Shown in pieces: positions 557-51,554 of a DNA stretch of 64,000 nucleotides (position 1 is the stretch's first letter; each line of letters opens with the position of its first letter). The stretch lies in assembly GCF_000027125.1 (NCBI RefSeq), contig NC_017626.1; one strand, 5' to 3'. The notes beneath the pieces are model-generated. The model saw nothing but the letters and a program-made list of their open reading frames with translations, searched no databases and had not been told where the DNA came from. This DNA is from Escherichia coli 042 (GTDB lineage Bacteria > Pseudomonadota > Gammaproteobacteria > Enterobacterales > Enterobacteriaceae). Made by a program: the position numbers and the translations under genes.

Positions 557-560
557 TGGA

Positions 561-13655: not shown

Positions 13656-13656
13656 T

Positions 13657-13785: not shown

Positions 13786-13814
13786 TAAGCGAAACAGCAC
13801 CGCGAGGAATCAGT

Positions 13815-14431: not shown

Positions 14432-14600
14432 AAAGTGAATTTTGTGATGTGGTGAATGCGGCTGAGCGCACGCGGAACAGTTAAAACCAAAAACAGTGTT
14501 ATGGGTGGATTCTCTGTATCCGGCGTTAATTGTTAACTGGTTAACGTCACCTGGAGGCACCAGGCACTGCATCACAAAATTCATTGTTGAGGACGCGATA

Positions 14601-14977: not shown

Positions 14978-15069
14978 AACAGTTCCGTAATAAATATCCG
15001 GTTTCATTCTTATATGCCAGCAATGGCAGGGATTTGTTCATCCTTAAATCTGTCATGAGGTTAAAACAA

Positions 15070-17541
15070 ATGAGTAAAGTCTTTATTTGCGCCGCTATTC
15101 CTGACGAACTGGCAACAAGGGAAGAAGGCGCTGTGGCTGTAGCCACAGCCATTGAAGCTGGCGACGAACGCCGTGCTCGAGCAAAATTTCACTGGCAATT
15201 CCTGGAACATTATCCGGCTGCTCAGGACTGCGCTTATAAATTTATTGTCTGCGAGGATAAACCTGGCATACCCCGCCCTGCCCTCGATTCATGGGATGCT
15301 GAATATATGCAGGAAAACCGCTGGGATGAGGAGTCTGCTTCTTTTGTCCCGGTTGAGACTGAATCCGATCCGATGAACGTCACTTTTGACAAGCTGGCCC
15401 CTGAAGTACAGAACGCTGTCATGGTTAAGTTCGACACATGTGAAAACATCACCGTTGATATGGTTATTAGCGCACAGGAATTGTTGCAGGAAGACATGGC
15501 AACATTCGACGGACATATCGTTGAAGCGTTGATGAAAATGCCAGAAGTTAACGCCATGTATCCGGAGCTTAAGTTGCACGCCATTGGGTGGGTTAAGCAT
15601 AAATGTATTCCTGGTGCTAAATGGCCCGAAATTCAGGCAGAGATGCGCATCTGGAAAAAACGTCGCGAAGGTGAACGCAAGGAAACCGGAAAATACACGT
15701 CTGTTGTTGATCTCGCCCGCGCCAGAGCCAATCAACAGTACACTGAAAATTCAACAGGAAAAATCAGCCCGGTCATTGCTGCCATTCATCGCGAATACAA
15801 GCAGACATGGAAAACACTGGATGACGAACTGGCCTACGCTCTCTGGCCTAGTGATGTGGATGCCGGAAACATTGACGGCAGCATCCATCGCTGGGCAAAA
15901 AAAGAAGTTATCGACAACGACCGCGAAGACTGGAAGCGTATCTCGGCATCAATGCGCAAACAGCCTGATGCCCTTCGCTACGACCGCCAAACTATTTTTG
16001 GCCTTGTCCGTGAGCGTCCGATCGACATTCACAAAGATCCCGTAGCACTGAACAAATATATCTGCGAATACCTGACGACAAAGGGCGTGTTTGAGAATGA
16101 AGAAACAGACCTGGGCACTGTTGATGTTCTCCAGTCATCAGAAACACAAACTGATGCAGTGGAAACTGAGGTATCTGATATCCCAAAAAATGAAACCGCG
16201 CCGGAAGCTGAACCATCTGTAGAGCGTGAGGGGCCGTTCTATTTCCTCTTCGCAGATAAGGACGGAGAAAAATACGGTCGCGCAAACAAACTCTCTGGTC
16301 TGGATAAGGCACTGGCTGCTGGCGCCACTGAAATCACAAAAGAAGAATATTTTGCCCGAAAAAATGGCACATACACGGGCTTACCGCAAAATGTAGATAC
16401 CGCTGAAGATTCAGAACAACCAGAGCCGATAAAAGTTACCGCTGACGAAGTAAACAAAATTATGCAGGCAGCCAATATCAGCCAGCCTGACGCCGATAAG
16501 TTGCTTGCTGCATCACGTGGTGAATTTGTTGAAGGGATTAGTGACCCGAATGATCCGAAATGGGTTAAGGGGCTCCAGACCCGCGATTCTGTGAACCAGA
16601 ACCAGCATGAATCGGAACGGAACTACCAAAAAGCGGAACAAAACAGTCCAAATGCGTTACAAAACGAGCCAGAAACGAAACAGCCTGAACCAGTAGCGCA
16701 ACAGGAAGTGGAAAAAGTCTGCACCGCCTGCGGTCAGACCGGCGGCGGCAACTGCCCTGATTGTGGCGCGGTGATGGGCGACGCAACATACCAAGAAACA
16801 TTCGATGAAGAGTATCAGGTTGAAGTTCAGGAAGATGATCCGGAGGAAATGGAAGGCGCTGAACATCCACACAAGGAGAACACTGGCGGCAATCAGCATC
16901 ACAATAGCGATAATGAAACTGGCGAGACGGCAGATCACCCAATTAAGGTGAACGGTCATCACGAAATCACATCCACCAGCAGGACGTGTGACCATCTAAT
17001 GATCGACCTTGAAACCATGGGAAAAAATCCTGATGCCCCGATCATCTCAATAGGTGCAATATTTTTCGATCCGCAAACCGGAGATATGGGACCGGAATTT
17101 AGTAAGACTATCGATCTGGAAACTGCTGGCGGAGTCATTGATCGGGACACCATTAAATGGTGGCTTAAGCAATTACGCGAAGCGCAATCTGCCATTATGA
17201 CCGATGAAATCCCGTTAGATGATGCACTGTTACAATTGCGAGAATTTATCGACGAAAACTCCGGTGAATTTTTTGTTCAGGTTTGGGGAAATGGAGCCAA
17301 CTTCGACAACACGATTTTGCGCCGTTCATACGAACGGCAGGGGATCCCCTGCCCGTGGCGTTACTACAACGATCGCGATGTACGCACAATCGTTGAGCTG
17401 GGGAAAGCCATAGACTTCGATGCCAGAACGGCTATTCCATTCGAAGGTGAGCGCCATAATGCACTTGATGACGCCCGTTACCAGGCAAAATACGTTTCAG
17501 TTATCTGGCAAAAACTGATCCCGAGTCAGGCTGATTCTTAA
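15070..17541 (+). CDS. ydfE: Intact YdfE-family protein with C-terminal DEDDh 3'-5' exonuclease domain (ORF-track frame 835 aa)
   Basis: N-terminus MSKVFICAAIPDELATREEG...; C-terminal motifs MIDLETMG, WGNGANFDNTIL, HNALDDARYQAKY; central CTACGQTGGGNCPDCG zinc ribbon and acidic linker. Confidence 0.7.
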   Translation: MSKVFICAAIPDELATREEGAVAVATAIEAGDERRARAKFHWQFLEHYPAAQDCAYKFIVCEDKPGIPRPALDSWDAEYMQENRWDEESASFVPVETESDPMNVTFDKLAPEVQNAVMVKFDTCENITVDMVISAQELLQEDMATFDGHIVEALMKMPEVNAMYPELKLHAIGWVKHKCIPGAKWPEIQAEMRIWKKRREGERKETGKYTSVVDLARARANQQYTENSTGKISPVIAAIHREYKQTWKTLDDELAYALWPSDVDAGNIDGSIHRWAKKEVIDNDREDWKRISASMRKQPDALRYDRQTIFGLVRERPIDIHKDPVALNKYICEYLTTKGVFENEETDLGTVDVLQSSETQTDAVETEVSDIPKNETAPEAEPSVEREGPFYFLFADKDGEKYGRANKLSGLDKALAAGATEITKEEYFARKNGTYTGLPQNVDTAEDSEQPEPIKVTADEVNKIMQAANISQPDADKLLAASRGEFVEGISDPNDPKWVKGLQTRDSVNQNQHESERNYQKAEQNSPNALQNEPETKQPEPVAQQEVEKVCTACGQTGGGNCPDCGAVMGDATYQETFDEEYQVEVQEDDPEEMEGAEHPHKENTGGNQHHNSDNETGETADHPIKVNGHHEITSTSRTCDHLMIDLETMGKNPDAPIISIGAIFFDPQTGDMGPEFSKTIDLETAGGVIDRDTIKWWLKQLREAQSAIMTDEIPLDDALLQLREFIDENSGEFFVQVWGNGANFDNTILRRSYERQGIPCPWRYYNDRDVRTIVELGKAIDFDARTAIPFEGERHNALDDARYQAKYVSVIWQKLIPSQADS

Positions 17542-17613
17542 TGTTCAACTGTCGCCGGTTGTGACTGGTATTCTGCAACCGGCGCTCGTCTGATGTAAGA
17601 GATAAAGAAATCG

Positions 17614-17865
17614 ATGAGCGAAGTAATCATGATTGTCTCTCCCGGCAAATGGGTATCCGAAGAGCAGTTAATTGCGCTGAAAGGAATAAAAAAAGGTACG
17701 TTAAAAAAGGCCCGAGAAAAATCGTTTATGGAAGGAAGGGAATATAAGTATGTCGCTCATGACGGTATGCCATGGGATAACAGTCCATGCTTTTACAACC
17801 TGGAAGAAATTGATCGCTGGATTGAGCGCCAGGCATCAGCGAGACCAAGACGTCATCTTACTTGA
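17614..17865 (+). CDS. Excisionase-like small protein (83 aa)
   Basis: Small basic protein immediately upstream of integrase gene. Confidence 0.45.
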   Translation: MSEVIMIVSPGKWVSEEQLIALKGIKKGTLKKAREKSFMEGREYKYVAHDGMPWDNSPCFYNLEEIDRWIERQASARPRRHLT

Positions 17866-17884
17866 CTAAAAGCCACACTAACTA

Positions 17885-19180
17885 ATGAGAGAAGTTGAAA
17901 TGAAATATCCGACAGGCGTGGAAAACCATGGAGGGAAATTACGTATCTGGTTTGTTTATAAAGACGTAAGAGTCAGGGAAAATCTGGGGGTTCCTGACAC
18001 AGCAAAAAACAGGCGCGTTGCAGGTGAACTACGCTCCTCTGTTTGTTACGCAATAAAAACTGGTGTTTTCGACTATGCAAAACAGTTTCCCTCCTCACGC
18101 AATCTGGAAAAATTTGGTGAGGCCCGACAAGATTTAACCATAAAAGAACTGGCTGAAAAATTTCTGGCACTGAAAGAAACTGAAGTCGCCAAAACATCAC
18201 TCAACACATACCGTGCCGTCATCAAAAATATCCTGAGCATAATCGGTGAAAAAAATCTTGCCTCATCGATTAATAAAGAAAAATTACTGGAGGTTCGTAA
18301 AGAGTTACTGACTGGATACCAGATCCCCAAAAGTAACTATATTGTTACACAACCAGGGAGATCGGCTGTAACTGTAAATAATTACATGACAAATCTTAAC
18401 GCCGTGTTCCAGTTTGGTGTTGATAACGGTTACCTGGCAGATAATCCGTTTAAGGGGATCTCGCCATTAAAGGAATCAAGAACCATTCCGGATCCTCTTT
18501 CGCGGGAAGAATTTATCCGTCTTATCGATGCGTGCAGAAATCAGCAAGCAAAAAATTTATGGTGTGTTTCTGTTTATACTGGAGTTCGCCCTGGTGAGCT
18601 GTGTGCACTTGGATGGGAGGACATAGATCTGAAAAATGGAACAATGATGATCAGGAGAAATTTAGCAAAAGACCGTTTCACGGTACCAAAAACACAGGCG
18701 GGAACCAATCGGGTCATTCATCTTATTAAGCCAGCAATCGACGCTCTCCGGAGTCAGATGACATTAACGAGACTGAGCAAAGAGCATATCATTGATGTTC
18801 ACCTCAGAGAGTATGGCAGAACAGAAAAACAAAAATGCACCTTTGTTTTTCAACCTGAAGTGTCAGCGAGAGTAAAAAATTATGGTGACCATTTTACCGT
18901 TGACTCAATAAGGCAGATGTGGGACGCAGCGATAAAACGTGCCGGACTCCGCCATCGAAAATCATATCAGTCGAGACATACTTATGCCTGCTGGTCGCTG
19001 ACAGCTGGTGCTAACCCGGCATTTATAGCAAACCAGATGGGCCATGCAGATGCGCAAATGGTATTTCAGGTATACGGAAAATGGATGTCTGAAAACAATA
19101 ATGCACAGGTAGCTTTGTTAAATACACAGTTAAGCGAGTTTGCCCCAACCATGCCCCATAACGAAGCAATGAAAAATTAA
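17885..19180 (+). CDS. intQ: Prophage tyrosine integrase IntQ (apparently intact)
   Basis: 431-aa ORF with C-terminal tyrosine-recombinase catalytic region (…GVRPGELCALGWEDIDL…HTYACWSLTAGANPAFIANQMGHADAQMVFQVYGKW); adjacent to rspB as in K-12. Confidence 0.85.
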   Translation: MREVEMKYPTGVENHGGKLRIWFVYKDVRVRENLGVPDTAKNRRVAGELRSSVCYAIKTGVFDYAKQFPSSRNLEKFGEARQDLTIKELAEKFLALKETEVAKTSLNTYRAVIKNILSIIGEKNLASSINKEKLLEVRKELLTGYQIPKSNYIVTQPGRSAVTVNNYMTNLNAVFQFGVDNGYLADNPFKGISPLKESRTIPDPLSREEFIRLIDACRNQQAKNLWCVSVYTGVRPGELCALGWEDIDLKNGTMMIRRNLAKDRFTVPKTQAGTNRVIHLIKPAIDALRSQMTLTRLSKEHIIDVHLREYGRTEKQKCTFVFQPEVSARVKNYGDHFTVDSIRQMWDAAIKRAGLRHRKSYQSRHTYACWSLTAGANPAFIANQMGHADAQMVFQVYGKWMSENNNAQVALLNTQLSEFAPTMPHNEAMKN

Positions 19181-19367
19181 TTTAATATTTATCAAATAGT
19201 TAACACGCATGACTCTTGAAATCCATAAATTCAAGCGCAGTGCCCAGCCATCCCGATACTGCTGCTTTCACCAAATCCTTAGTGCTTCTTTCGTGTTTTT
19301 CTATTGTCATAATGGTTATCTCTAAAAAAGAGGTAAGATGCGTACTACTTACTCGCCGTTATTGGTA

Positions 19368-40383: not shown

Positions 40384-40530
40384 ATGGCAAAGCCGATCAT
40401 CACGCTCAATGGCCTAAAAATCGTCATTATGTTGGGAATGCTGGTCATTATTCTCTGCGGTATCCGTTTTGCCGCCGAGATCATCGTGCCGTTTATTCTC
40501 GCATTATTTATTGCTGTTATATATAACTAA
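40384..40530 (+). pseudogene. tqsA: tqsA 5' fragment (first 46 native codons, then island-derived I-Y-N-stop)
   Basis: [46 protein letters not shown] then frame leaves native sequence at 40521. Confidence 0.85.
40512..40520. repeat. attL core direct repeat TGCTGTTAT
   Basis: Identical 9-mer at 51546-51554; joining the flanks restores ...[18 protein letters not shown]... of TqsA. Confidence 0.65.
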
Positions 40531-40593
40531 TTTCACTTAACGCATTGATTTAATTAAATGATTTGCACTACAAAAAGTGCCATAAATCGCAAA

Positions 40594-40617
40594 ATGACTA
40601 CACCAGTGACTACACCG
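40594..40617. repeat. Arm-type tandem repeat ATGACTACACC-AGTGACTACACCG near attL
   Basis: Same 23-24 nt tandem motif present at 51395-51418 near attR in same orientation. Confidence 0.55.
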
Positions 40618-40934
40618 TTCGGTGCACTGTATGAAACAACGTGGAACAAATAGACACAAGAAATATACAGGCGGGTCATCTTTCCAGGGGGAAGCGCGCT
40701 AATTCATGAGGGGCGTTAATGTTGATATGGGGATCCCCATAACGGGGCTACCGGATTTTTTTTCCGGTTAACTGTTAATCAGGCTGGTGGGCTTTACCTG
40801 TTTTGTAGGAGTGGTCATTATGACCATTCAGACAATGACCTTAATCAGAACTTTTCGCTAAAAAATGACGTTGGTCACGTCGTCCGGAAAGCACAAAATC
40901 CCGTCAATTTTTAATTAACGGTTAAACCGTCTTT

Positions 40935-40980
40935 TGTCACGGCGTGTCACTGGTTGTCACTCTCCGTCACGGTATGTCGC
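40935..40980. repeat. Five GTCAC-type half-sites phased at exactly 10 bp
   Basis: tGTCACggcgtGTCACtggttGTCACtctccGTCACggtatGTCGC; GTCAC is the reverse complement of the GTGAC of the arm repeats. Confidence 0.5.
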
Positions 40981-40986
40981 TACTCG

Positions 40987-41268
40987 TTAACGCCGTAACC
41001 GCTCCGGCTTCTTCCAGTGGTACGTAATTTTCTCCGTTTCCCGATACAGTGCCACGCGGCGATTGTAGGCCAGCATTTCAAGAACGCGGATCCGTATGTT
41101 GCGCATATCCACATCATTAAGCTGGATACCATCACGGCGCATCACCTCAGCAACCACACGCGCGTAATTTTCGGCGGTCACGCTGTCCGGCTGCGTGGCC
41201 TGTTCGTCATGCTGCTGGCTGATTCCGGTAACGCGGCGGATTAATCCCAGTAGTTCGGCTTCTGTCAT
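40987..41268 (-). CDS. Hypothetical island protein (93 aa from MTEAELLGLIRR)
   Basis: ORF; start chosen downstream of cos copy 1 with GGGGG SD-like upstream; longer ORF-track N-terminus would read through cos. Confidence 0.35.
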   Translation of the reverse strand: MTEAELLGLIRRVTGISQQHDEQATQPDSVTAENYARVVAEVMRRDGIQLNDVDMRNIRIRVLEMLAYNRRVALYRETEKITYHWKKPERLRR

Positions 41269-41301
41269 TGTGCCCCCATCGCTCTGATAGTCTGGTGTCG
41301 T

Positions 41302-41366
41302 CGGGTCCTTCCTGGAATTATGGCCCGTTACGGGGCGGCGACCTCGCGCGTTTTCACTATTTATGA
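41302..41366 (+). other. Lambda-type cos site copy 1 (cosN GGGCGGCGACCT at 41333-41344), followed by ACCGGACAT repeats at 41383-41479
   Basis: cgggtccttcc...gttacgGGGCGGCGACCTcgcgcgttttcactatttatgaaaatttt closely matches recalled lambda cosQ-cosN-left-end sequence. Confidence 0.7.
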
Positions 41367-41547
41367 AAATTTTTCGGGATCCATGTCCGGTTTCTCTGCA
41401 AGTTAACCATATGAAAAATATAAAAACATGCTTTCCATGAACCGGACATGCGCAAAAAACAGACACTAAAACCGGACATCGAACCAGTTAACCGAAAGTG
41501 TGCACAAATCACATGCATTGCTGCGAGTGATTAACAAGTTATCGGCT

Positions 41548-41982
41548 TTACTGTTCTGTATCGGCTGATTGCTCCATGCTGGCACGGCGAACGCTTATGG
41601 CATGACGCCACCCAGCCAGAAAGCCAGCCATTTTATTTCGTGCCTTGCTCACATCTTCCGGTGAATAGCCGTAAATCTGCAAACCTTCATCAAATCGATG
41701 TTCTGTTTCTTCACTGGAGTACTCGTCACGCTCAGATGAAAGCAGCCTGGCAAACATAATTTTTTCCAGCGCACTGGTTTCTACGTGATATCTGATGGTC
41801 TCAAGACGGCTTTTACCTGAAGACCAAAGCAATGTATGCCCGATGTGATAACCGCCAGACTTTCCGCGATCCGCATTAAGATACGGCATCCCCTGTTTGG
41901 TCCATGCGCGAATAGTGGTTCTGTTAACCTTGAAATGTTCAGCTATTTCCTGCTGACTTACAAAACAAGCTTTATCAATCAT
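41548..41982 (-). CDS. Nu1-like small terminase / packaging-specificity protein (144 aa)
   Basis: N-terminus VSQQEIAEHFKVNRTTIRAWTKQGMPYL parallels lambda Nu1 VNKKQLADIFGASIRTIQNWQEQGMPVL winged-HTH. Confidence 0.65.
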   Translation of the reverse strand: MIDKACFVSQQEIAEHFKVNRTTIRAWTKQGMPYLNADRGKSGGYHIGHTLLWSSGKSRLETIRYHVETSALEKIMFARLLSSERDEYSSEETEHRFDEGLQIYGYSPEDVSKARNKMAGFLAGWRHAISVRRASMEQSADTEQ

Positions 41983-42049
41983 AATGTTACCTTAACTGCA
42001 TGGTTAAATATTAATCAAGTGGTGGTGGTGTCACCTTCACGGAAAAACG

Positions 42050-42115
42050 TCATAAATAGCGAAAACCCGCGAGGTCGCCGCCCCGTAACGGGCCATAATT
42101 CCAGGAAGGACCCGT
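42050..42115 (-). other. Lambda-type cos site copy 2, inverted relative to copy 1 (cosN complement at 42072-42083), 88 bp upstream of terS
   Basis: Reverse complement reads ...gttacgGGGCGGCGACCTcgcgggttttcgctatttatga; 63/65 identity to copy 1. Confidence 0.7.
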
Positions 42116-42137
42116 AAAAAAGCCGGATTTCTCCGGC
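42115..42137 (-). terminator. Rho-independent terminator ending capsid operon
   Basis: Minus strand GCCGGAgaaaTCCGGC followed by T-tract. Confidence 0.6.
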
Positions 42138-42143
42138 CTTGTC

Positions 42144-42557
42144 TCAGATGTTTTTCAGTATGCGATCGATGTCGCCGTCATCGCCCTGGTTTCTGCCATC
42201 GTATGCCATGCCAGCTGATACGGCTTGCGGGCTGTGCATGTCCATAAAGTTTTCAAAGGCTGCGGTAAGTTCCGGCGCAACCTTCGGACGTTCCTGCTCT
42301 ATGGTCATGCTAAGGATGCTTTTAGCCGTACCAACATCGATACAAGGCACGTTTGCCATTGCACGCAACAGCGGCTGATAGTCTTTATGCTCATGAAGCG
42401 CCATAATCGCATCAGCGCGCGGCTTGTCCTGCTCTTCCAGTTTGTTTAGTTGATGTACGGCCTCATAGGTTGATAAACCTCTGTCAGCCATTGCCCGCGC
42501 TTCGACTTTAAATTTACTCGCCAGCGGTAGCGTCATGATGCTTTCATTCGTTGCCAT
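42144..42557 (-). CDS. Hypothetical island protein (137 aa), last gene of capsid operon
   Basis: ORF co-directional and tightly spaced after D-like gene. Confidence 0.45.
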   Translation of the reverse strand: MATNESIMTLPLASKFKVEARAMADRGLSTYEAVHQLNKLEEQDKPRADAIMALHEHKDYQPLLRAMANVPCIDVGTAKSILSMTIEQERPKVAPELTAAFENFMDMHSPQAVSAGMAYDGRNQGDDGDIDRILKNI

Positions 42558-42569
42558 CGTTCCCCCTGC

Positions 42570-42905
42570 TTATCGGGCCAGCGGCTGAACGGATACGCCG
42601 GAACCCGCAAAGGCGGCGCATTTTTTCGCATCGGTGTCGACGCTCTCAGGCCAGTTAACGGCGGCAATATTGAATATCCCCGTCTTGTAACACTGTGCTG
42701 ATTTCTGCTTTGACGTGTCCACAGGGTACGAGGTCAGATAAACAGCCTTGCCAGATTCCTGACCATCCCACGGCTTAAACTCGCCATTGTCTGCCAGCAT
42801 CAGCGGGGTAAATTCCTGAATAACGCCAGCATCAGCGGCAAAATGTACCAACGTCGTGGATACCTGCTGACTGCCTGCAAATAACTCAATGTATGGAGTG
42901 TCCAT
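42570..42905 (-). CDS. Head decoration protein, lambda gpD homolog (111 aa)
   Basis: TPLMLADNGEFKPWDG...YKTGIFNIAAVNWPESVDTDAKKCAAFAGSGVSV parallels lambda D TPLMLDTSSRKLVAWDG...[35 protein letters not shown]. Confidence 0.8.
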   Translation of the reverse strand: MDTPYIELFAGSQQVSTTLVHFAADAGVIQEFTPLMLADNGEFKPWDGQESGKAVYLTSYPVDTSKQKSAQCYKTGIFNIAAVNWPESVDTDAKKCAAFAGSGVSVQPLAR

Positions 42906-42917
42906 AGAATCCCCCCG

Positions 42918-43973
42918 TTAACCAATTTTGACGGTAACAAATTTGCGAATATCTGCCGGTACCGGCTGCGGTGCACTGTGTGTCTGCACGTACTCAATCG
43001 CCGGATCGCCGTCCTCAATCCAGTTTTTCGGGTAAAACATGTTTTGTGTTGCGCCCGTTCTTACCGCTTCCTGATCCATTATCGCACCATAGGCCACCAG
43101 CCCTTTATTGTTGGTGTTACCCAGGACCAGCAAATCAGGCTCAAGGAAATATTTTTCGGTACCATCGCTGTCAGTGTATTTGCCGGAATAGACGATAAGG
43201 GCCAGATCACCAAGATAGCCTTTAAAGCTCACCACTTCGCCCAGGTTTTTACAGGCCAGTTCGGCGGCGGATTCTGAACCACGGGAAAGATCGTACAGCT
43301 CACGGAATTTTTTAAAGCTGCGTAATGTGCGCCATACCTCAGCGCCCATAATCATGACGTTTGCGGGGCAACCAGCCTGATCAGCATAAAGCTCGATGTC
43401 ATAGATTGGGTCGTGCATGTCTTTATCCTGCTCGGACCATTTTTTACCCTTGGCCTGCTCTATGATGCAGTTTTCCGGTATTTTCCAGTCGATTTCATAG
43501 CGTTCTATGCCTTCGCCCTCAATGATGTTTTTTCCGGTCGTTACCGCATTCACCGCCAGCCATTCCACGCGTGCCTTAATGGCGTTTATCTGGCGGCGCA
43601 TGTTGCCAGTAATCAGGCGCATACGGCGATAGGTAGGGTCGTTAAGCTGTGCCGGATCTTCTCCAGCCATGCGCATGATGGTTTTCGTTGGATCGATTTC
43701 GTGCTTTGGCTTCATGTAGCCAGGTTTGATTGTGCTGGTTTCGTACCCTTTATCGCGCTGAACCTGGCTACCCACCATAGGCGAACAAAACGCCGACATG
43801 GTGACTTCTTCAATGTCCAGGGTATCCAGCATGATGTTTTGCGTGCTGAATGTCGCCACGTTCGGGAAAAACAGCGTGGTAAACAGAGGGCTGAATTTAA
43901 AATCCGCAATATCCCCGCGATTCAGGTACATGAAAAGCTGGTTAGTGTTAAGTGCCGTTGCTTTGCCTGCCAT
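42918..43973 (-). CDS. Major capsid protein, lambda gpE homolog (351 aa)
   Basis: KPGYMKPKHEIDP, DPTYRRMRLITGNMR, VSFKGYLGDLALIVYSGKY, YPKNWIEDGDPA align along recalled lambda E. Confidence 0.85.
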   Translation of the reverse strand: MAGKATALNTNQLFMYLNRGDIADFKFSPLFTTLFFPNVATFSTQNIMLDTLDIEEVTMSAFCSPMVGSQVQRDKGYETSTIKPGYMKPKHEIDPTKTIMRMAGEDPAQLNDPTYRRMRLITGNMRRQINAIKARVEWLAVNAVTTGKNIIEGEGIERYEIDWKIPENCIIEQAKGKKWSEQDKDMHDPIYDIELYADQAGCPANVMIMGAEVWRTLRSFKKFRELYDLSRGSESAAELACKNLGEVVSFKGYLGDLALIVYSGKYTDSDGTEKYFLEPDLLVLGNTNNKGLVAYGAIMDQEAVRTGATQNMFYPKNWIEDGDPAIEYVQTHSAPQPVPADIRKFVTVKIG

Positions 43974-44179
43974 TATTCACCCCCATAATTTTTATGCATC
44001 CCAAGCGCCGCAAGTAAATAAGAGCGTACAAGTGAACCTATCGACGGCTCCGGCGTCATCAGCGGATCCAGTCCAGCCGCAACGCCAGCTTCATAGTTTT
44101 TTTTGTGGCGCTGCTTGAGCACCTCCACGATTTCGGGGCTTATGTACACCGAAACACCGCCTTTTTTCTCTTCAGCCAT
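43973..44179 (-). CDS. Small protein upstream of capsid gene, possible ribbon-helix-helix fold (68 aa)
   Basis: MAEEKKGGVSVYISPEIVEVLKQRHKK; GAGGA SD; stop overlaps capsid start. Confidence 0.35.
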   Translation of the reverse strand: MAEEKKGGVSVYISPEIVEVLKQRHKKNYEAGVAAGLDPLMTPEPSIGSLVRSYLLAALGMHKNYGGE

Positions 44180-44208
44180 AGTAAGAAATTCCTCTTCGAC
44201 TAAAAAAA

Positions 44209-44236
44209 TCATAACTGGATGTTTATCCAGTTATGA
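44209..44236. promoter_or_regulatory. Perfect 12-bp inverted repeat TCATAACTGGAT-gttt-ATCCAGTTATGA in capsid-operon promoter region
   Basis: Seen directly; 30 bp upstream of operon start; second palindrome ATTGCATtttATGCAAT at 44248-44264. Confidence 0.5.
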
Positions 44237-44388
44237 TTATAATCAGAATTGCATTTTATGCAATGATATTGAGTTATGTTGCAAATTATGAAATGATTAT
44301 CCCGATCACGAACGCCAGTGCATCCAAAAACCTCATATGCAAAAGCCCGATAAGAACCCTCTGACCTTATCGGGCTTTTTTTGGGCGC

Positions 44389-44410
44389 AAAAAAGCCGGA
44401 TTGCTCCGGC
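44389..44410 (-). terminator. Rho-independent terminator after 74-aa gene
   Basis: Same GCCGGA-loop-TCCGGC module plus T-tract; preceded by second hairpin 44345-44382. Confidence 0.55.
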
Positions 44411-44430
44411 TATGTGTGCTGTGTGCTGGC

Positions 44431-44655
44431 TCAGTCTCTGATCTCTTTCAGAAATTCTATCAATGCATCTATCTGTTCAGGATTTACCGCCAGCATTTCA
44501 CCGGATAGAGCACATCTCACAAAACCATGCTGATCCTTTTCAATCAGTGCGCCCGTCTCCAGGAATGCGCGGTAATCATTGATGCTCATCGTCTCCATGT
44601 TGTCAGCATGGTATTTATCACGCTGTTTTAATATCTCATCAAATTTCATCGGCAT
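44431..44655 (-). CDS. Hypothetical island protein (74 aa)
   Basis: ORF bracketed by terminators. Confidence 0.4.
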   Translation of the reverse strand: MPMKFDEILKQRDKYHADNMETMSINDYRAFLETGALIEKDQHGFVRCALSGEMLAVNPEQIDALIEFLKEIRD

Positions 44656-44751
44656 TGTTTTTTTCCTCTGTTGTGTCTGTTTGTTTCAGATAGTAACTAT
44701 GCCTGACCGTGACGAAAACCCGGTAATGCGCCATACCGTTTCAACTGGTGC

Positions 44752-44774
44752 AAAAAAAGCCGGATTTCTCCGGC
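44752..44774 (-). terminator. Rho-independent terminator after PerC-like gene
   Basis: GCCGGAgaaaTCCGGC plus T7 on minus strand. Confidence 0.6.
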
Positions 44775-44781
44775 TGTTTGA

Positions 44782-45054
44782 TTAGCTGTCCTGGTAATTG
44801 CGCCATATTTCATCACCAGCACCATCTATACCCATTTCGGCATAAGTGCGATCGACTGCCTTTTTCAGGTCTCCGAAATTATCCGGCGGCTCCGGTGCCC
44901 TCTGTGCCTTCCTTGAACATTCCAGCCGTCGCATCGTGATGTGATGCCGTTCCTTGTCTGTCTCCACCAGCTGCATGACTTCACCCCATCGCGCCGCCGC
45001 CCTCCGGTAAAAGCCTTTCGCCTCCAGTTCCTCCGCTATGCGGTCATGTACCAT
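44782..45054 (-). CDS. PerC/Pch-family transcriptional regulator (90 aa)
   Basis: AEELEAKGFYRRAAARWGEVM resembles recalled Pch/PerC signature (…LEAQGLWRRAAARW…); GAGGGGG SD before ATG. Confidence 0.55.
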   Translation of the reverse strand: MVHDRIAEELEAKGFYRRAAARWGEVMQLVETDKERHHITMRRLECSRKAQRAPEPPDNFGDLKKAVDRTYAEMGIDGAGDEIWRNYQDS

Positions 45055-45064
45055 CGTCACCCCC

Positions 45065-45475
45065 TCAGAACGAAATATCATCACCGTAAGGGTCATCGCC
45101 TCCCGCTGGTGGCTGATTACCCTGTGTGCCTGTGGTTTTGCGTCTGTTCCCGCCTGGACGTGCCGCGCGGGCACTGATTACGCTGTCTGCGATAACCTGC
45201 CAGCCCTGCCGCGTTTCTCCGTTCTGTCCGGTCCACTGGCTTACCTGCATCGTGCCGGATACGCTGGCAACATCGCCTTTTTGATGTTTAGCCAGGAAGT
45301 CGGCCTGTTTGCCAAATGCGATGACCGATAACCATAACGTCGCCTGTCCGTCCTGTGCCTGGCTGCATGGCAAAGATACCGCCATACGCGCCAGCGTCAT
45401 CGGTGTGCCCTTGCTGGTCTGTTTTACCTGCGGGTCGTCCACCAGCCGCCCGTAAGCGGCTATCTGTGCCGTCAT
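45065..45475 (-). CDS. ssb: Single-stranded DNA-binding protein (SSB)
   Basis: OB-fold region and Gly/Pro-rich tail ending DDPYGDDISF (cf. E. coli SSB C-terminal DDDIPF). Confidence 0.8.
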   Translation of the reverse strand: MTAQIAAYGRLVDDPQVKQTSKGTPMTLARMAVSLPCSQAQDGQATLWLSVIAFGKQADFLAKHQKGDVASVSGTMQVSQWTGQNGETRQGWQVIADSVISARAARPGGNRRKTTGTQGNQPPAGGDDPYGDDISF

Positions 45476-45723
45476 AATTCCACCTCTCCGGTTTTAACGT
45501 TGATGGTTGTTACCTGTTCCGCTTCGGCAATCTCCCGTTCTGTCAGCGTGGCAAAGTTTGCCGCCGCCGTGGTCATGAATGCGCTTATCAGGTCGGGATG
45601 TTCCTTCGCGTATCCTTCCCGCGTGTGGCGGTCTATCGTTCTGATTGCCACCTTTAAGGTGTGCTCAGTCATGTCTAACGCTTTATATTTTGGCTCTGTT
45701 CTGTCTCTGCGTTTTTGGGTCAT
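45472..45723 (-). CDS. Hypothetical small protein between ori and ssb
   Basis: ORF; start uncertain (45723 or 45672). Confidence 0.3.
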   Translation of the reverse strand: MTQKRRDRTEPKYKALDMTEHTLKVAIRTIDRHTREGYAKEHPDLISAFMTTAAANFATLTEREIAEAEQVTTINVKTGEVEL

Positions 45724-45734
45724 TTCTCGCAACC

Positions 45735-45926
45735 TCTCACTTTTTCGCCTCACTTTTTCAAGCGTCTCACTTCGTCGCAGTTGGGATTTTCGGTTTTTCT
45801 ATGTGTGTGTTTCATAAGTATTTTTTTACCCCTCACTTTTGAGGATGTATACAGGTCGAAAAGTGAGGGAGAGCGGGCTAATTTTGGCCCTCTTTCTATC
45901 CCCCTCGCTTTTGCTCCTCACTTTTA
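45735..45926. repeat. Iteron array (CTCACTTTT, at least 6 copies, both orientations) with AT-rich spacer: putative island replication origin
   Basis: Copies at 45735, 45748, 45766, 45832, 45858 (inverted), 45916; directly 3' of pri-rep gene. Confidence 0.55.
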
Positions 45927-47324
45927 TAGCGGCGCTACATCATCCCCATCGATACGAATAACCCCATCTTTTTCCAGCTTGTACAGCCAGCGCCGGAAGT
46001 TTTTCATTTCATACCCCAGCTTTTTCATGTCATCACGTAACAGCGGGATCGTGCACTTGTCGCCGTTCTGTGTGCGTGAACGGATGCACCCCCATAGCGC
46101 GGTATGGTTTTCCGTCTTGTTCCCTGCCTCCTCGATGCGCTCCAGTTCAACAGGAGGGCGCGGATCATCCACCACCACCAGCGACGTGATTAATTCACCG
46201 TCAGCGTCGGTAAAAAGCTCCACCACGCGTAAGTCATATGCGGCTTCTTTGAGTTCCTCCGCGTCCTTCATTTTGGTGCATGAGATAACCAGCGCTTCGC
46301 TTCCTGCGTCCTCCCTGCGTATCCGGTATTCAGCATCCAGCGAAGCACGAAATGCACTGGAACCGCGCGCGCCTTTCGTCTCATCCTTGCCGGAATGGTG
46401 AACCACCAGCACCGTGGCCCCTGTGCGTCGTTTCAGTTCGTCACAACCACGGATAAACGCCCCCATATCACGGGAATCATTTTCATCATTCCCACCAAAG
46501 CAACGCGCCAGCGTATCCAGAATAATCATGCGTACAGGTTTACCCGTTTCCCGCTCCACCTGACGGGCAGCGATAACCATTTCATCAACATCAAGCGGGG
46601 CAGCCGGAAAGATGGGGCGGTTTACCAGATACAGATTTTTCACCTGCTCATCGTGCACAACCTCCCAGGCTTTTACACGACGCGGAACACCTATACCGCC
46701 TTCACCAACCACATAGAGAACCGCACCATGTGCAACCCTGCGGCCTCCCCACTGGCGACCAGTGGCAACATGGCACGCCCACGATCCAGCAAGGAATGAT
46801 TTATAGGACCCGCTAGCCCCGTATATGCTGCATAGCGATACCGCCGGAATAATCCCCTTAACCACGTAATCCAGTTGCGTGTCGTATCCGGTAGATCCAA
46901 CGCTCATCGGTAGCGTGGTTTTTCGCTGGTGTTTTTTTTCTTCCGCCGGCTCTTTCCCGCGCACCCGTTCCAGGTATTCGCGCCAGTTCTCCCGCATATG
47001 GCTGTGCATCCCTTCGGGGTAATAATTCGCATCAGTTACACCCGCCGCCGCCAGCTTGTGCGCAATGGCATTAATATTTGATGGCCTGATGTGGCCTGCC
47101 TTGTACAGCCGGACACAATAGCGCCCCTCGTCGATGATTCTCAGGTCTGCCAGTTCATCCAGTTGATCATCAGCCAGCACAACGGGAGGCACATTATCGC
47201 CAGCCAGTCGCCCGTCCTGTTCCTGCCACTGTTTCGCATGTGCCCAGGCATCACTACCCGCAAAAATAATGACTTCGGTCATCTTGTCGTAAGGCTGTTT
47301 TTTTAAGTTCGGTGCGCTTTTCAT
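45924..47324 (-). CDS. Primase/replicase-type AAA ATPase (RepA/AAA_25-like, 466 aa)
   Basis: Walker A GASGSYKS, Walker B MIILDTLARCFGG, VVHHSGKDETKGARGSSAF sensor region. Confidence 0.8.
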   Translation of the reverse strand: MKSAPNLKKQPYDKMTEVIIFAGSDAWAHAKQWQEQDGRLAGDNVPPVVLADDQLDELADLRIIDEGRYCVRLYKAGHIRPSNINAIAHKLAAAGVTDANYYPEGMHSHMRENWREYLERVRGKEPAEEKKHQRKTTLPMSVGSTGYDTQLDYVVKGIIPAVSLCSIYGASGSYKSFLAGSWACHVATGRQWGGRRVAHGAVLYVVGEGGIGVPRRVKAWEVVHDEQVKNLYLVNRPIFPAAPLDVDEMVIAARQVERETGKPVRMIILDTLARCFGGNDENDSRDMGAFIRGCDELKRRTGATVLVVHHSGKDETKGARGSSAFRASLDAEYRIRREDAGSEALVISCTKMKDAEELKEAAYDLRVVELFTDADGELITSLVVVDDPRPPVELERIEEAGNKTENHTALWGCIRSRTQNGDKCTIPLLRDDMKKLGYEMKNFRRWLYKLEKDGVIRIDGDDVAPL

Positions 47325-47620
47325 TTCTTGCCCCTGAATCCGTTAACCATGGTTTTCAGCTTCTGGATGTTTGCCCGTGCCCTGGCGTTGCTGGTGGGCA
47401 CGTTATGCGGCGCGGTCTGTACCAGAGAAAAATCACGCCGGAACTGATAAACAGGCATCACGCAATCATATTCGTAACCTTCACGGCGGTAGGTTACGCG
47501 CCGTTCTTCCACGTCCTTAATCATTACCGTGCCGCCGTACTGGTCGCGGTAAATATCACCGCGCGTAAATTTAGGGTGAGTGTTGCCACTGGCAGTTAAG
47601 CCAGAATATTTAAGTTTCAT
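47321..47620 (-). CDS. Hypothetical island protein (99 aa)
   Basis: ORF in tight operon; stop overlaps pri-rep start. Confidence 0.45.
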   Translation of the reverse strand: MKLKYSGLTASGNTHPKFTRGDIYRDQYGGTVMIKDVEERRVTYRREGYEYDCVMPVYQFRRDFSLVQTAPHNVPTSNARARANIQKLKTMVNGFRGKK

Positions 47621-47625
47621 TATTT

Positions 47626-47859
47626 TTATTCTCCGGTGTGCTGTTCTTTATATCTGTCGTGCAATAGATCTATTTCTTGCAGTTCCATTATTACAGGCTC
47701 AAGAAGCGTTATTAATGCTGTGGCAATTCTTGATTTTTGTTTGTCGCGTTCATTGTCGCCAAGTGTTTCAAGCCATATGCGCAATATTTCCATCATGTTT
47801 TCACTGTGAGAAAGTGCAAGAAATGCGCGGTCTATTGTTTGGTGGTAAATATCACGCAT
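47626..47859 (-). CDS. Hypothetical island protein (77 aa)
   Basis: ORF in operon. Confidence 0.4.
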   Translation of the reverse strand: MRDIYHQTIDRAFLALSHSENMMEILRIWLETLGDNERDKQKSRIATALITLLEPVIMELQEIDLLHDRYKEQHTGE

Positions 47860-48319
47860 GGCTTACATCCTCAGGAAATTTTCTTCTATAACGCGCCTCT
47901 GCCACATATTCCGCATAATCGGCGGCGATATTCAGTACATCAAGCCCCGTTGATTTATATTCTCTCGTGGAAAGTAAGAAAAAAGCCGCTCTAATAAGTT
48001 CTGGCATTGACGAAAGCGCATCAGCCGCATCATCAGGAACGCCGGAAAATTCCTGTTTCAGGGAATTAAAACGATCATCACGCATAACCCCCCCCCCATT
48101 TTCACAATCAGCAATCAGGATAGCTTTGGCCTCATTCAGCGCCGTATCAGCACTAAATTGCATGACAGCCAGTGAGTGAGGAACGAAAGCACCGGCATAT
48201 TCTGTTTCGCTGGTGGCGTGCTTATGTGCCCTGTCCGCGATAACAGAAATATCAATCAGCGCGTGCATCAGCGTTTTGATGGCTTCGGCGGCTGCGTCCG
48301 GTGTGGTTTTATTGTGCAT
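47852..48319 (-). CDS. Hypothetical island protein (155 aa)
   Basis: ORF in operon. Confidence 0.45.
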   Translation of the reverse strand: MHNKTTPDAAAEAIKTLMHALIDISVIADRAHKHATSETEYAGAFVPHSLAVMQFSADTALNEAKAILIADCENGGGVMRDDRFNSLKQEFSGVPDDAADALSSMPELIRAAFFLLSTREYKSTGLDVLNIAADYAEYVAEARYRRKFPEDVSHA

Positions 48320-48521
48320 AAAGCATCCCCTGAATATTCGTGTTAATCATTCCGGCACGTTTTGTGATTTCCTGTAATGATTCCCTTGTGGCGACAATTG
48401 CTTCATCTGGTAAGTGGTAATTACACACCACGCGACCTTTATCCACATTGACCAGTAGCTGCCCTGTGAATTTCTCACGAAACTGAATGCGGTTAAGGTC
48501 AGTAAGTGACAGATTAATCAT
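48309..48521 (-). CDS. Hypothetical island protein (70 aa)
   Basis: AGGAGG immediately upstream of ATG at 48521. Confidence 0.45.
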   Translation of the reverse strand: MINLSLTDLNRIQFREKFTGQLLVNVDKGRVVCNYHLPDEAIVATRESLQEITKRAGMINTNIQGMLYAQ

Positions 48522-48711
48522 GGCGCACCTCCTGACGAATACGGGCGGCAAATACAGCAACACAACCGGACGGGCAACGGTTACGCGCTTCGCGTTCCGT
48601 CCAGGCGGTTACGTGGATGATTTGAGATTCTCCGGCACTCAGTGCCAGAAAACGCCACACAAAGGCCGTTTGTGTGTGTACAAGGTGTGGTATATGATTT
48701 ACAGCAACCAT
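48514..48711 (-). CDS. Hypothetical island protein (65 aa), first gene of leftward operon
   Basis: AGGAG SD upstream of ATG at 48711. Confidence 0.4.
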   Translation of the reverse strand: MVAVNHIPHLVHTQTAFVWRFLALSAGESQIIHVTAWTEREARNRCPSGCVAVFAARIRQEVRHD

Positions 48712-48804
48712 AACGGCTCCTAGTTTACGTTGTTGGTTAGAAGCCCTGCGAGTGGTAACGACACTTGCGGGGCTTTGTCTTTTCATCGATTACCTTGATA
48801 AAGG

Positions 48805-48884
48805 TGTCAGCCACTATATTAGTAACGGGTGTCAGCCACGTCAATAGTGTTTTTCCGTTTTCTTGTGTGTATACTGTCAGCCAC
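48805..48884. promoter_or_regulatory. Three direct repeats TGTCAGCCAC in divergent promoter region, with TATACT -10-like element
   Basis: Repeats at 48805-48814, 48830-48839, 48875-48884. Confidence 0.5.
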
Positions 48885-48905
48885 CTAATAACGAGGAAAT
48901 CAGAT

Positions 48906-49085
48906 ATGGCAACAAAAGCAGTTAATGCAAAATCCAAAAAGCTTGAGGCTCGAGTACCACACGCAATAGCTGATGCTGTAGAAAATTTAAAGGAAGATGG
49001 CGAAAGTACAGGGCAATTTATCGTTTCGGCACTTGAAGGCGAGATCAAACGCCGCCAGCGCCGCAAGGCCAAAGAATCAGAATAA
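48906..49085 (+). CDS. Ribbon-helix-helix (CopG/Arc-like) putative repressor (59 aa)
   Basis: KKLEARVPHAIADAVENLKEDGESTGQFIVSALEGEIKR fits beta-strand/helix/helix RHH pattern; divergent from main operon. Confidence 0.5.
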   Translation: MATKAVNAKSKKLEARVPHAIADAVENLKEDGESTGQFIVSALEGEIKRRQRRKAKESE

Positions 49086-49127
49086 TCACTATCAGCGCCG
49101 TGGTGTGAGGTATTACGGCGCATTGCT

Positions 49128-49316
49128 ATGCAGGACAACACAATGACCGATAAAGAATTGACCAAAACATTATCACCGGCACGGAAAAGACGGCGCAGAA
49201 AGATAGAGCATGAATCAGAAAGATTCGCACCATGTGCTTTTGCCCTTGAGCAATTCCTTAAAGAGTACAGGGAAAAGCGCTCATTGCAGGTATGGCAACG
49301 AACTGAACCAGACTGA
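49128..49316 (+). CDS. Hypothetical small basic protein (62 aa or shorter from MTDKEL)
   Basis: ORF followed by hairpin plus T7 at ~49410-49440. Confidence 0.3.
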   Translation: MQDNTMTDKELTKTLSPARKRRRRKIEHESERFAPCAFALEQFLKEYREKRSLQVWQRTEPD

Positions 49317-49585
49317 TTGCATTGCCCACCAGCCTGATAGCGGCTATCATCCCCGTGCTTATGTTTGGGATCACACACACAAACGGCGCAGCGGGTTATC
49401 TGTTCAGAAAGGCGGCTCCATTTCGGGGCCGCTTTTTTTATACCTGAAAAACCCCAATTTTGTTGTTTTTCAGTTTCACCAGGGCGAACGAATCCCCGCC
49501 CACGTTCTGGCGTATATTCAATCTTCATGGTTATAGCTCTGTGTTCAGATGATTGATGTGTGGCGGCTGCGTGCCGCCAGCGTGA

Positions 49586-49774
49586 TTAATGAACTGCCTT
49601 GCAGCTATCCTTCCAGGCCAGAACCTCGGATAAAGACCAGCCAACGGAACGACCGCCAAGTTTACGACGTGATGGGAATTGTCCGGCCTTTTCCAGGCGG
49701 TAGCGACACGTACGGCTAAGGCCGGTTAGTTTTTCGCATTCTTTTTCACGTATAAACCGATCAGTGCTTAACAC
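49586..49774 (-). CDS. alpA: AlpA-family excision/transcription regulator
   Basis: 62 aa MLSTDRFIREKECEKLTGLSRTCRYRLEKAGQFPSRRKLGGRSVGWSLSEVLAW. Confidence 0.8.
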   Translation of the reverse strand: MLSTDRFIREKECEKLTGLSRTCRYRLEKAGQFPSRRKLGGRSVGWSLSEVLAWKDSCKAVH

Positions 49775-50048
49775 TATTGCCCCCCCTTTCGTTTCTTAAA
49801 GAGTCATCAGGTGTCTTATTGTGTCGTATTGTTCCCGCTAGAGTGATGAATGGCAAATATTGAGGATGTATGATTTACAGAAAATGAAACAGTAAGAATA
49901 AAATCTTTTAAATTCATGTTAATACAAAGGCATAAAATATTGTTTCATGCCTTTTTTCTCGCTCTTTAAAGAGTGATTCGCTAGTGTATAAAAAACCAGT
50001 GACACATTAAAAATCAGCCACTTATAAATCTGTATGCTTTTTCGCCTC

Positions 50049-50123
50049 TTGTTCGTGGTTGTTCCACATTGTTGCTCATTGTTGCACGTTGTATCTGTTC
50101 GCATATACAGTATGCGCATACTG
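50049..50123. promoter_or_regulatory. Five TTGTTSC-like repeats at ~10-bp spacing plus 16-bp perfect palindrome CAGTATGCGCATACTG (50108-50123) in int-alpA intergenic region
   Basis: Seen directly. Confidence 0.4.
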
Positions 50124-50140
50124 AAAAAACACGAAAAAAA

Positions 50141-51370
50141 TTATTTTCTTCTGGCTACTGGTAGCGTGGTTACGTTTTCATGTGTTCCCGCCAGTATCCC
50201 TAACCGCTCCGTCCACATATCCAGCGCATTGCGTTTAGCATCCAGATAACGGGAATGATTATAAACTCGCTGCATTCCTGGCATCTGGTGGCCTGTAAGC
50301 TGCTCCACGACATGCGGATCAACGCCTAAATCGTTCAGCATGGTTGTAAAGGTGCGCCGGATGTCATGCAGTGACCAGTGAGGATGATTAAGCCTCCTGT
50401 GCGCTAATCTTCCATACTGCGATACGCTGGCCTCCTGTTTCACTTCCCCCAGCAATAAGCCCGTGTGCCTGTTCTGCTCCACCAGCTGCGTGACGAACGG
50501 CAGGATCGCTTCCGGTATGGGCCGGAATATTGCGACCTTCGTTTTGCTGTGCTCCTTCGGAACGGTCCATAGCATTTCCGTAAAATCCCACTCCCCGATC
50601 TCCGATAACCTCAGTTCTACCGTTCTGGCTCCGAAGACAATCAGGAGGCGGATTAACGCGACGTAGTAAGGGGAGAATATTTTTTTGTCCAGTGCCTGCA
50701 ATAATTCGCCAAGTTCTTTGTTACTTAAGACACGTTCGCTTATATCCGGTTTTTTCCCAACGTCCGCCACGTTCAGATCGTCCAGAACGTTGCTGATTGC
50801 ATAGCGCCGCCTACGGCAGAACTTAAGCGCCTGTTTGCACGCCTGTAGCACGAATCCGGCAGTAACAGGCGTTCGCTTTGCCACCTGGTCAAAACAGGCC
50901 AGCCAGTGCCGTAGCTCGCATTTATCCAGCGGCATAGCACCAATCTGCTGTATTACGTGATTATTAAGTCGCCTTTTCAGGGCGATATAATCCACGCGGT
51001 TTTCCTTTACGTAATACTCAAGCCAGTAGGTGAGCGCATCGCCAACCGTTACCGGCTTTAACGCTTCCTGTACGGTGTAATTAAGCTCATGACGTGGATT
51101 TTTCCCCTCTGCCAGCCATGCGCGACACTGGGCGGCTTTTTCCCTGGCTGATTTCAGGCTCAGATCAGGATAACTTCCCAGCTTAATGCGTTCGGGTCGT
51201 GTCTCCCTTCCCGTTCCGGCCCTGTATGTGAAATACCAGGTCAATTTCCCTGATGTTAAATATTTCACGCTCAGGTTTCCGCCATCACTATAAAACGTGT
51301 TTTTCTCCGCTGGCTTACCATGAAGTTTCCTTAGCAAGGTATCGCTCAGTTTGTTCATTGCTCTGCTCAC
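50141..51370 (-). CDS. int: P4-type tyrosine integrase (start GTG 51370 or ATG 51358)
   Basis: 409-aa ORF; catalytic region ...HDIRRTFTTMLNDLGVDPHVVEQLTGHQMPGMQRVYNHSRY; adjacent to attR. Confidence 0.9.
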   Translation of the reverse strand: MSRAMNKLSDTLLRKLHGKPAEKNTFYSDGGNLSVKYLTSGKLTWYFTYRAGTGRETRPERIKLGSYPDLSLKSAREKAAQCRAWLAEGKNPRHELNYTVQEALKPVTVGDALTYWLEYYVKENRVDYIALKRRLNNHVIQQIGAMPLDKCELRHWLACFDQVAKRTPVTAGFVLQACKQALKFCRRRRYAISNVLDDLNVADVGKKPDISERVLSNKELGELLQALDKKIFSPYYVALIRLLIVFGARTVELRLSEIGEWDFTEMLWTVPKEHSKTKVAIFRPIPEAILPFVTQLVEQNRHTGLLLGEVKQEASVSQYGRLAHRRLNHPHWSLHDIRRTFTTMLNDLGVDPHVVEQLTGHQMPGMQRVYNHSRYLDAKRNALDMWTERLGILAGTHENVTTLPVARRK

Positions 51371-51394
51371 GTTTTACCCCCTCTTTACGAAAAA

Positions 51395-51418
51395 GTGACT
51401 ACACCAGTGACTACACCG
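51395..51418. repeat. Arm-type tandem repeat GTGACTACACC-AGTGACTACACCG near attR
   Basis: Matches 40594-40617. Confidence 0.55.
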
Positions 51419-51545
51419 ATCGTTGCACAAAGGGCTACAACGTGAAACAAGCTGGAACAAGGAAAATCACAAATCTGTTGATAATCAAAAACATAATGCA
51501 CAGCCTGAAACATTATGAAACAGCAAAAAACACCAAATGATAAAA

Positions 51546-51554
51546 TGCTGTTAT
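51546..51554. repeat. attR core direct repeat TGCTGTTAT
   Basis: Identical to 40512-40520. Confidence 0.65.

Follow-up and report, generated by a model that had tools for sequence, protein, structure and literature searches.

The window analyzed here is a 64-kb stretch of DNA from Escherichia coli 042. On its minus strand lies a 144-aa open reading frame that begins with an ATG at 41982 and ends with a stop codon at 41548-41550, exactly where the first-pass annotation had placed it. This gene is carried by an island that interrupts tqsA, and the minus-strand order of the island is integrase, AlpA-like regulator, small ORFs, RepA-type helicase, SSB-like protein, PerC-like activator, capsid, decoration protein, 137-aa protein, rppA, and a 93-aa ORF. 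The principal features, in order of coordinates, are as follows.

40512-51554, no strand: EcCICFT073-type PICI, 11,034 bp between att cores; splits tqsA; gene order as in EcCICFT073
40512-40520 and 51546-51554, no strand: att cores, 9-bp direct repeats TGCTGTTAT, from the junction sequences
40987-41268, minus: conserved 93-aa ORF 3' of cos2 (PHROG 1561, E 5.9e-56)
41302-41479, plus: cos2 (cosQ-cosN-cosB2), inverted relative to cos1 and the same as EcCICFT073 cos2
41548-41982, minus: rppA (redirecting phage packaging protein A), 144 aa
41983-42114, minus: cos1 (cosQ-cosN-cosB1), identical to EcCICFT073 cos1 in Fig. S1A of PMC6739421
about 42117-42140, minus: terminator-like hairpin with U tract, 3' of the 137-aa gene and 5' of cos1
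42144-42557, minus: 137-aa protein, similar to the C-terminal scaffold region of a head protease (PHROG 1999/53)
42570-42905, minus: head decoration protein (PHROG 49, E 1.5e-27)
42918-43973, minus: major capsid protein (PHROG 29, E 1.5e-107)
45924-47324, minus: replication protein, RepA-family helicase/primase-like, 466 aa (PHROG 2850/906)
49586-49774, minus: AlpA-like HTH regulator, 62 aa; an equivalent 189-bp HTH-regulator gene adjoins int in related islands
50141-51370, minus: tyrosine integrase (PHROG 1, E 1.4e-71), 91% identical to the EcCICFT073 integrase

Gram-negative PICIs were taken to be elements of ~10-15 kb lacking genes for the terminase large subunit, portal, or tail. The present island measures 11,034 bp and has att repeats, int, alpA, a helicase gene, and two cos sites.

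The 144-aa protein matches RppA

The first-pass annotation had proposed this gene as a candidate for packaging redirection, and we compared its product with published PICI redirection proteins. The protein is identical at 142 of 144 positions to RppA of strain CFT073 (C_RS07025, old locus c1503); the CFT073 reference was the chromosome around phoQ, which takes in the end of the model island EcCICFT073. Only two substitutions separate the proteins, with T62 in place of A and I129 in place of V. Among solved structures, the top match is RppC of EcCIEC2733.1 (PDB 6HLK; 6HN7) with an E value of 4.5e-31 over residues 2-125, and the next best are DNA-binding domain structures of lambda-type TerS/Nu1 (E 0.06-0.2, with the Nu1 domains at 0.06-0.1; residues 8-56, phmmer). 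The homology to RppC includes the winged helix-turn-helix (wHTH) and residues R21, T22, R25, K29, and K41, all of which are present in the window protein. RppC differs in that only about half of its residues are shared (the published RppA-RppC identity is 43.65%; PMC6739421), it is 153 aa long, and it carries R at position 30 rather than the Q of the window RppA.

The architecture of the protein is likewise that of an Rpp. Its N-terminal TerS-like wHTH carries the alpha2 recognition residues R21 and T22, and the residues for TerS heterodimerization (L51) and homodimerization (F121, in alpha6) are conserved, such that all four mutationally tested residues are kept. It is shorter than TerS (144 versus 181 aa) and lacks the TerL-binding C-terminal domain, a combination whose reasoning is given for Rpp proteins in PMC9026076. 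Finally, it is encoded by a PICI, directly 3' of a cos site that pairs lambda-like cosQ and cosN with a non-phage cosB. A tblastn search of 50,697 phage records returned no RppA homolog, which is consistent with a satellite-specific protein.

Because the tested residues are kept, the identity is 99%, and the corresponding protein has been studied experimentally, we assign a probability of about 0.93 to the conclusion that ORF 41548-41982 is the rppA gene of an 11-kb EcCICFT073-type PICI in tqsA and that it works as published. The mechanism and structure of this gene's product have already been described in detail, and what we report is the re-identification of a well-studied satellite gene. 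The main value of that re-identification is annotation; in RefSeq this protein still carries the label "hypothetical protein."

A cos site with a lambda-like cosQ/cosN precedes rppA

The cohesive end of cos1 runs from 42083 to 42072, and the ATG of rppA falls at bp 102, which is the cos-rpp layout of Murialdo and Feiss (PMC9026076). In Fig. S1A of PMC6739421, cos1 is the site 5' of rppA, whose cosB includes "...CCGTGAAGGTGACACCACCACCAC...", and cos2 is the site that contains ACCGGACAT. We located a candidate R3-PICI element in cos1 at bp 48-65 (AGGTGACACCACCACCAC, 42036 to 42019). The earlier observation that cos sites lie on both sides of the gene proved correct: the lambda cohesive-end sequence GGGCGGCGACCT has exactly two copies in the 64-kb window, at 41333-41344 (plus) and 42072-42083 (minus), and both fall inside a 78-nt inverted repeat that is 91% complementary (41302-41379 and 42037-42114). 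In the phage collection, the cosQ/cosN part of cos1 has matches and cosB1 has none. The whole 1.2-kb segment from the terminator through the 93-aa ORF (cos1-rppA-cos2-ORF93) is nearly base-for-base that of CFT073.

The terminator that had been noted 5' of the gene also holds up. The hairpin 5' of cos1 consists of GGCCGGAGAAAUCCGGCU followed by U6, and it folds at -18.3 kcal/mol with z = -3.5; a consensus terminator scan missed it, and folding confirmed the hairpin. The same arrangement, GCCGGA-loop-TCCGGC plus a T run on the minus strand, occurs in three island copies (42113-42142, 44386-44415, and 44750-44779), which stand 3' of the 137-aa gene, the 74-aa gene, and the PerC-like gene. Promoter-like sites near rppA number 4 compared to 2.3 +/- 1.6 in shuffles, which is not above expectation.

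RppA is expected to redirect helper TerS to cos1

Experiments with the 99%-identical RppA have proven the proposal, made in the first-pass annotation, that packaging is redirected through mixed complexes with helper Nu1 (PMC6739421). Expressed alone, RppA blocks lambda and phi80. Island transfer needs RppA, the helper TerS is also still required, and TerS mutants that escape RppA lose island transfer too (PMC6739421). RppC imitates a single TerS DNA-binding domain and assembles into a TerS-RppC2-TerS complex (PMC6739421); structure 6HN7 is RppC complexed with lambda TerS 1-98. The substitution L51D abolishes TerS binding and F121R abolishes dimerization, and with R21A/T22A cos1-directed packaging is lost and interference is kept (PMC6739421). 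Published genetics and structures thus show that RppA heterodimerizes with helper TerS, blocks recognition of the phage cos, and directs the complex to cosB1, and by analogy the window RppA is expected to do the same.

During lytic growth of a lambda-type helper (one with a lambda, phi80, or 21-like TerS), RppA would dimerize via its C-terminal helices. The N-terminal wHTH of each RppA would act as a mimic of half of the TerS DNA-binding dimer and would capture one monomer of the helper TerS. The hybrid DNA-binding domain would no longer read the phage cosB, and interference would result, whereas helix alpha2 (R21/T22) would steer the hybrid to cosB1, beside the lambda-like cosN just 5' of rppA. 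The captured TerS would bring TerL, such that cosN1 is nicked and island concatemers are packaged into phage-sized heads. Four 11.03-kb units would amount to 44.1 kb (91% of the length of lambda), where the tetramer size is our own estimate. In this scheme, the identity of the protein and the layout of the sites come from the window, and the protein-protein and protein-DNA steps come from experiments on CFT073 RppA and RppC. Induction, replication, and high-frequency transfer by helper phage are published for EcCICFT073 only (PMC6092414). There is no helper prophage with a lambda-type terS within the 64-kb window.

The second cos site is a captured phage cos

Three copies of ACCGGACAT are present in the window, all within 41383-41479 (0.46 expected; 0 of 100 shuffles reach 3). 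They are R-type elements located at 41383-41391 (inverted, bp 51), 41441-41449 (bp 109), and 41471-41479 (bp 139) of cos2. The first-pass annotation had proposed an EMSA on these repeats, which implies that they are a target of the protein. We found that five PhiR12 phages among the phage records match cos2 at 93% over 179 bp. Over bp 1-147, cos2 is identical to the PhiR12_1 cos at 143 of 147 positions (99 of 100 in the cosB part, bp 48-147), and past the last repeat the identity falls to random (9/53). The R repeats occupy equal positions in the two sites (bp 51 inverted, 109, and 139). In PhiR12_1, this cos follows the lysis genes and is immediately 5' of the phage's own Nu1-type terS and terL, with terS starting at bp 196 compared to bp 191 in lambda. 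The lambda elements R3 and R2 lie at bp 53 and 114 and are likewise mutually inverted. As in lambda, the R3-R2 spacer of cos2 is A+T rich (71%), and no IHF consensus WATCAANNNNTTR with up to one mismatch is present between R3 and R2 of cos2.

From the 143/147 identity, the equal R positions, and the phage terS that follows, we conclude that cos2 is a complete cos captured from lambdoid prophages of the PhiR12 type. The published cosB swap shows that RppA does not target it. The ACCGGACAT repeats belong, as R elements, to the cosB of a different phage family. The N terminus of PhiR12 TerS is unrelated in sequence to RppA, and only the C-terminal half of PhiR12 TerS aligns with TerS of the CFT073 icd prophage (40% identity). 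In contrast to cos2, cosB1 and RppA have no phage counterpart in our searches.

The main competing view of the repeats is that RppA, alone or with TerS, binds ACCGGACAT and that cos2 is the Rpp-dependent packaging site of the island. Three exact repeats near the gene in an R3/R2/R1-like arrangement would suit this view, as would the small RppA effect (p = 0.04) that was published for a plasmid with cos2 (PMC6739421). However, cosB-swap plasmids showed RppA-dependent transfer from the cosB of cos1 only (PMC6739421). Island transfer needs cos1 and not cos2, such that deletion of cos1 lowers transfer and deletion of cos2 raises lambda-mediated transfer (PMC6092414). Moreover, the phages that share cosB2 at 99 of 100 positions have their own unrelated TerS DNA-binding domain. 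We therefore consider it improbable that cos2 is the site served by RppA.

Two papers from the Penades laboratory report that they could identify no phage cosB in the island, and they raise the question of why two cos sites occur in some PICIs. Within the set of papers searched, we found none of relevance on PhiR12 phages or on later cos2 work. The new elements of our analysis, of modest value, are the recognition of cos2 as a copy of a PhiR12-type cos and the cassette boundaries described below. Other satellites that copy a phage cos (11capE, cos SaPIs, and P4) resemble the window island in that cos2 is a near-exact phage cos copy including cosB; for example, HE-PICI 11capE and its helper have 258 bp of cos in common at 90% identity (PMC10111431). 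The difference is that here the copied cos coexists, in inverted orientation, with a satellite-specific cos that is served by an Rpp.

RppA resembles Nu1 only in its N-terminal domain

The first-pass annotation had described the N-terminal wHTH as closely paralleling lambda Nu1. The resemblance is real, but "closely" is an overstatement because the similarity is weak at the sequence level. By BLASTP, lambda Nu1 and RppA share 29.7% identity over 64 aa (pairwise E 4.7e-6), PHROG 57 ("terminase small subunit") covers residues 7-46 alone (E 4.2e-8), and Pfam Phage_Nu1 (PF07471) is sub-threshold (i-E 0.034, residues 8-40, positions 3-36 of the 164 in the model). No NCBIfam terminase match was found for RppA. 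The companion statement that the C-terminal half diverges was accurate, as the BLASTP similarity ends at about residue 71 and nothing past this point is Nu1-like. The genes are also similarly placed, with each following cosQ-cosN-cosB in equal order and orientation, whereas RppA differs from Nu1 in lacking the TerL-binding C-terminal domain, in falling below the Pfam threshold, and in being associated with a different cosB. Compared to Nu1, RppA acts as a partner and mimic of TerS rather than as a terminase subunit.

These findings bear on the alternative that the gene encodes a true island small terminase, which would bind the island cos, recruit the helper TerL (gpA), and replace Nu1, much as SaPI TerS does for pac SaPIs. 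In addition to the TerS-like wHTH, this alternative draws on the closest sister island, that of O55:H7 strain CB9615, which has a full-length 180-aa TerS at exactly this position. However, a small terminase of the Nu1 type would be expected to match the Nu1 profile over its full length, including the oligomerization and TerL-binding regions, and the 144-aa protein does not. Direct pairing of RppA with gpA, which the first-pass annotation had put forward, is unlikely because there is no counterpart of the Nu1 C terminus and because the helper TerS is still required; indeed, EcCICFT073 is not transferred by a helper that lacks terS. Given also the concurrent loss of island transfer in the TerS escape mutants, we view a genuine island small terminase as very improbable.

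Searches of the 144-aa protein with NCBIfam, PADLOC, and Pfam yielded sub-threshold generic HTH matches alone, including HTH_28, HTH_17, and MerR_1 of Pfam (i-E 0.007-0.03), BldC of NCBIfam (below cut-off), and mad1 of PADLOC (5e-5). These weak matches and the RefSeq label could suggest an ordinary HTH transcription regulator or excisionase-like island protein with no packaging role, but the 99% identity to characterized RppA, the clear homology to RppC, and the location directly behind a cos site make this the least probable of the alternatives.

The cosB1-rppA-cosB2 segment may be an exchangeable cassette

The nearest relatives of the island backbone are islands located between roxA and phoQ in O55:H7 strain CB9615 and in O157:H7. 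Their backbone is 97.9% identical to that of the window island over 86% of the length, and they have the same two inverted cosN repeats. They differ in carrying the full-length TerS at the rppA position and a different cosB on both sides. The O55:H7 TerS is 36% identical to Nu1 over the whole length, and its neighboring cosB2' yields weak matches alone (72-76% identity) when compared with phage cos sites. In an alignment of the window and O55:H7 islands, homology stops at ~bp 34 of cos1 and resumes at ~bp 34 of cos2. Because the homology breaks at ~bp 34 on both sides, the exchanged unit is exactly cosB1-gene-cosB2, within the inverted cosQ/cosN repeats. The cosB1-rppA-cosB2 segment thus appears, from these alignments, to be an exchangeable cassette between inverted cosN repeats.

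A broader proposal is that packaging of the island can start at two sites, one for each of two helper families, and that cosB1-rppA-cosB2 serves as a swappable helper-specificity cassette, and we give this proposal even odds. Under such an arrangement, cos1 together with RppA would hijack TerS of the lambda, phi80, or 21 type, whereas cos2 (cosQ-cosN-R3-spacer-R2-R1) would be read directly by PhiR12-type TerS without an Rpp, with packaging then running the other way; a role of cos2 with PhiR12-type helpers is our inference. A 653-bp query made up of PhiR12-type cosB and terS was recovered at >=80% coverage from at least 1149 of the 5426 complete genomes of E. coli. The match of cos2 to the cos of a prophage family that roughly one in five of these genomes carries offers a concrete, testable explanation for the puzzle of two cos sites. 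If cos2 is a phage cos, a wider helper range is predicted for EcCICFT073-type islands, which are carriers of virulence and accessory genes.

Architecture and distribution of the host island

The island resembles EcCICFT073 in the rppA protein and in both cos sites, which are identical to the published versions (PMC6739421), including cosB1 and the position of the ATG, and also in its flanks, which comprise the 137-aa gene, decoration, and capsid genes upstream and the 93-aa ORF downstream. The genes of the capsid-related module (42144-43973) are shared with EcCICFT073 (c1499, c1500). In CFT073, O55:H7, and strain 300033, the annotation of the 93-aa ORF is that of a hypothetical gene of 282 bp; its PHROG 1561 match corresponds to the last 93 residues of a longer, mechanically defined ORF. 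The differences are that EcCICFT073 lies between roxA and phoQ, whereas the window island is in tqsA, that the integrases are 91% identical and the att core is different, that EcCICFT073 has a 584-aa primase rather than the 466-aa RepA-type helicase, and that five phased GTCAC repeats are absent from CFT073.

At least 80% of the island was found in 359 of 5426 complete E. coli genomes, and at least 80% of the rppA-cos block in 48 of the 5426. Strain 300033 has a near-identical rppA block in an island at the same annotated tqsA site. The replication gene of the O55:H7 island is annotated as "helicase RepA family protein."

Several additional observations were made for the island. It is mosaic, in that a packaging cassette of the CFT073 type is combined with the 466-aa RepA-type helicase that serves as replication gene in the O55:H7 islands; the 584-aa primase is the replication gene in EcCICFT073 and strain 300033, and not in the window island. 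In the O55:H7 and O157:H7 islands, segment 41345-42071 is replaced by a TerS cassette with GGATCTGA-type repeats in cos2. The window island encodes lambda-E-like capsid, D-like decoration, and Nu3/scaffold-like proteins, and is without portal, protease, or terminase large subunit genes. For EcCICFT073, deletion of the capsid or decoration gene brought no relief from interference, and the DNA that was packaged had phage size (PMC6092414).

The integrase is 91-92% identical to its CFT073 and O55:H7 counterparts, though those islands sit between roxA and phoQ, and its amino acid differences cluster most densely within the first 60 residues. The att core is AAATATGTCC in the O55:H7 island compared to TGCTGTTAT in the window island. 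Just inside both island ends is a 76-nt direct repeat with 76% identity (40591-40666 and 51392-51467), and each copy contains two tandem TGACTACACC motifs. These repeats are possible arm-type sites for the integrase. Just past the stop codon of the 93-aa ORF, five GTC(A/G)C elements with exactly 10-bp spacing occupy 40936-40980. They are lacking in the CFT073 and O55:H7 islands, and the region lies inside a 99.9% match to strain 300033.

We also considered a 263-aa ORF (48737-49528, minus) as a candidate accessory or defense gene. It is probably not a gene because it has no family match in PHROGs, NCBIfam, or PADLOC and its composition is not protein-like. A plus-strand ORF (48765-49085) is located at the position of an opposite-strand YlcI/YnfO-family gene in the CFT073 and strain 300033 islands. 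Elsewhere, positions 1-19200 of the window hold one arm of a lambdoid/Rac-like prophage that adjoins rspAB; any packaging genes of this prophage lie beyond the window, and its genes in this arm include a tyrosine integrase (17885-19180), a RecE-like exonuclease VIII (15034-17541), and an ISNCY-family transposase (7365-8678).
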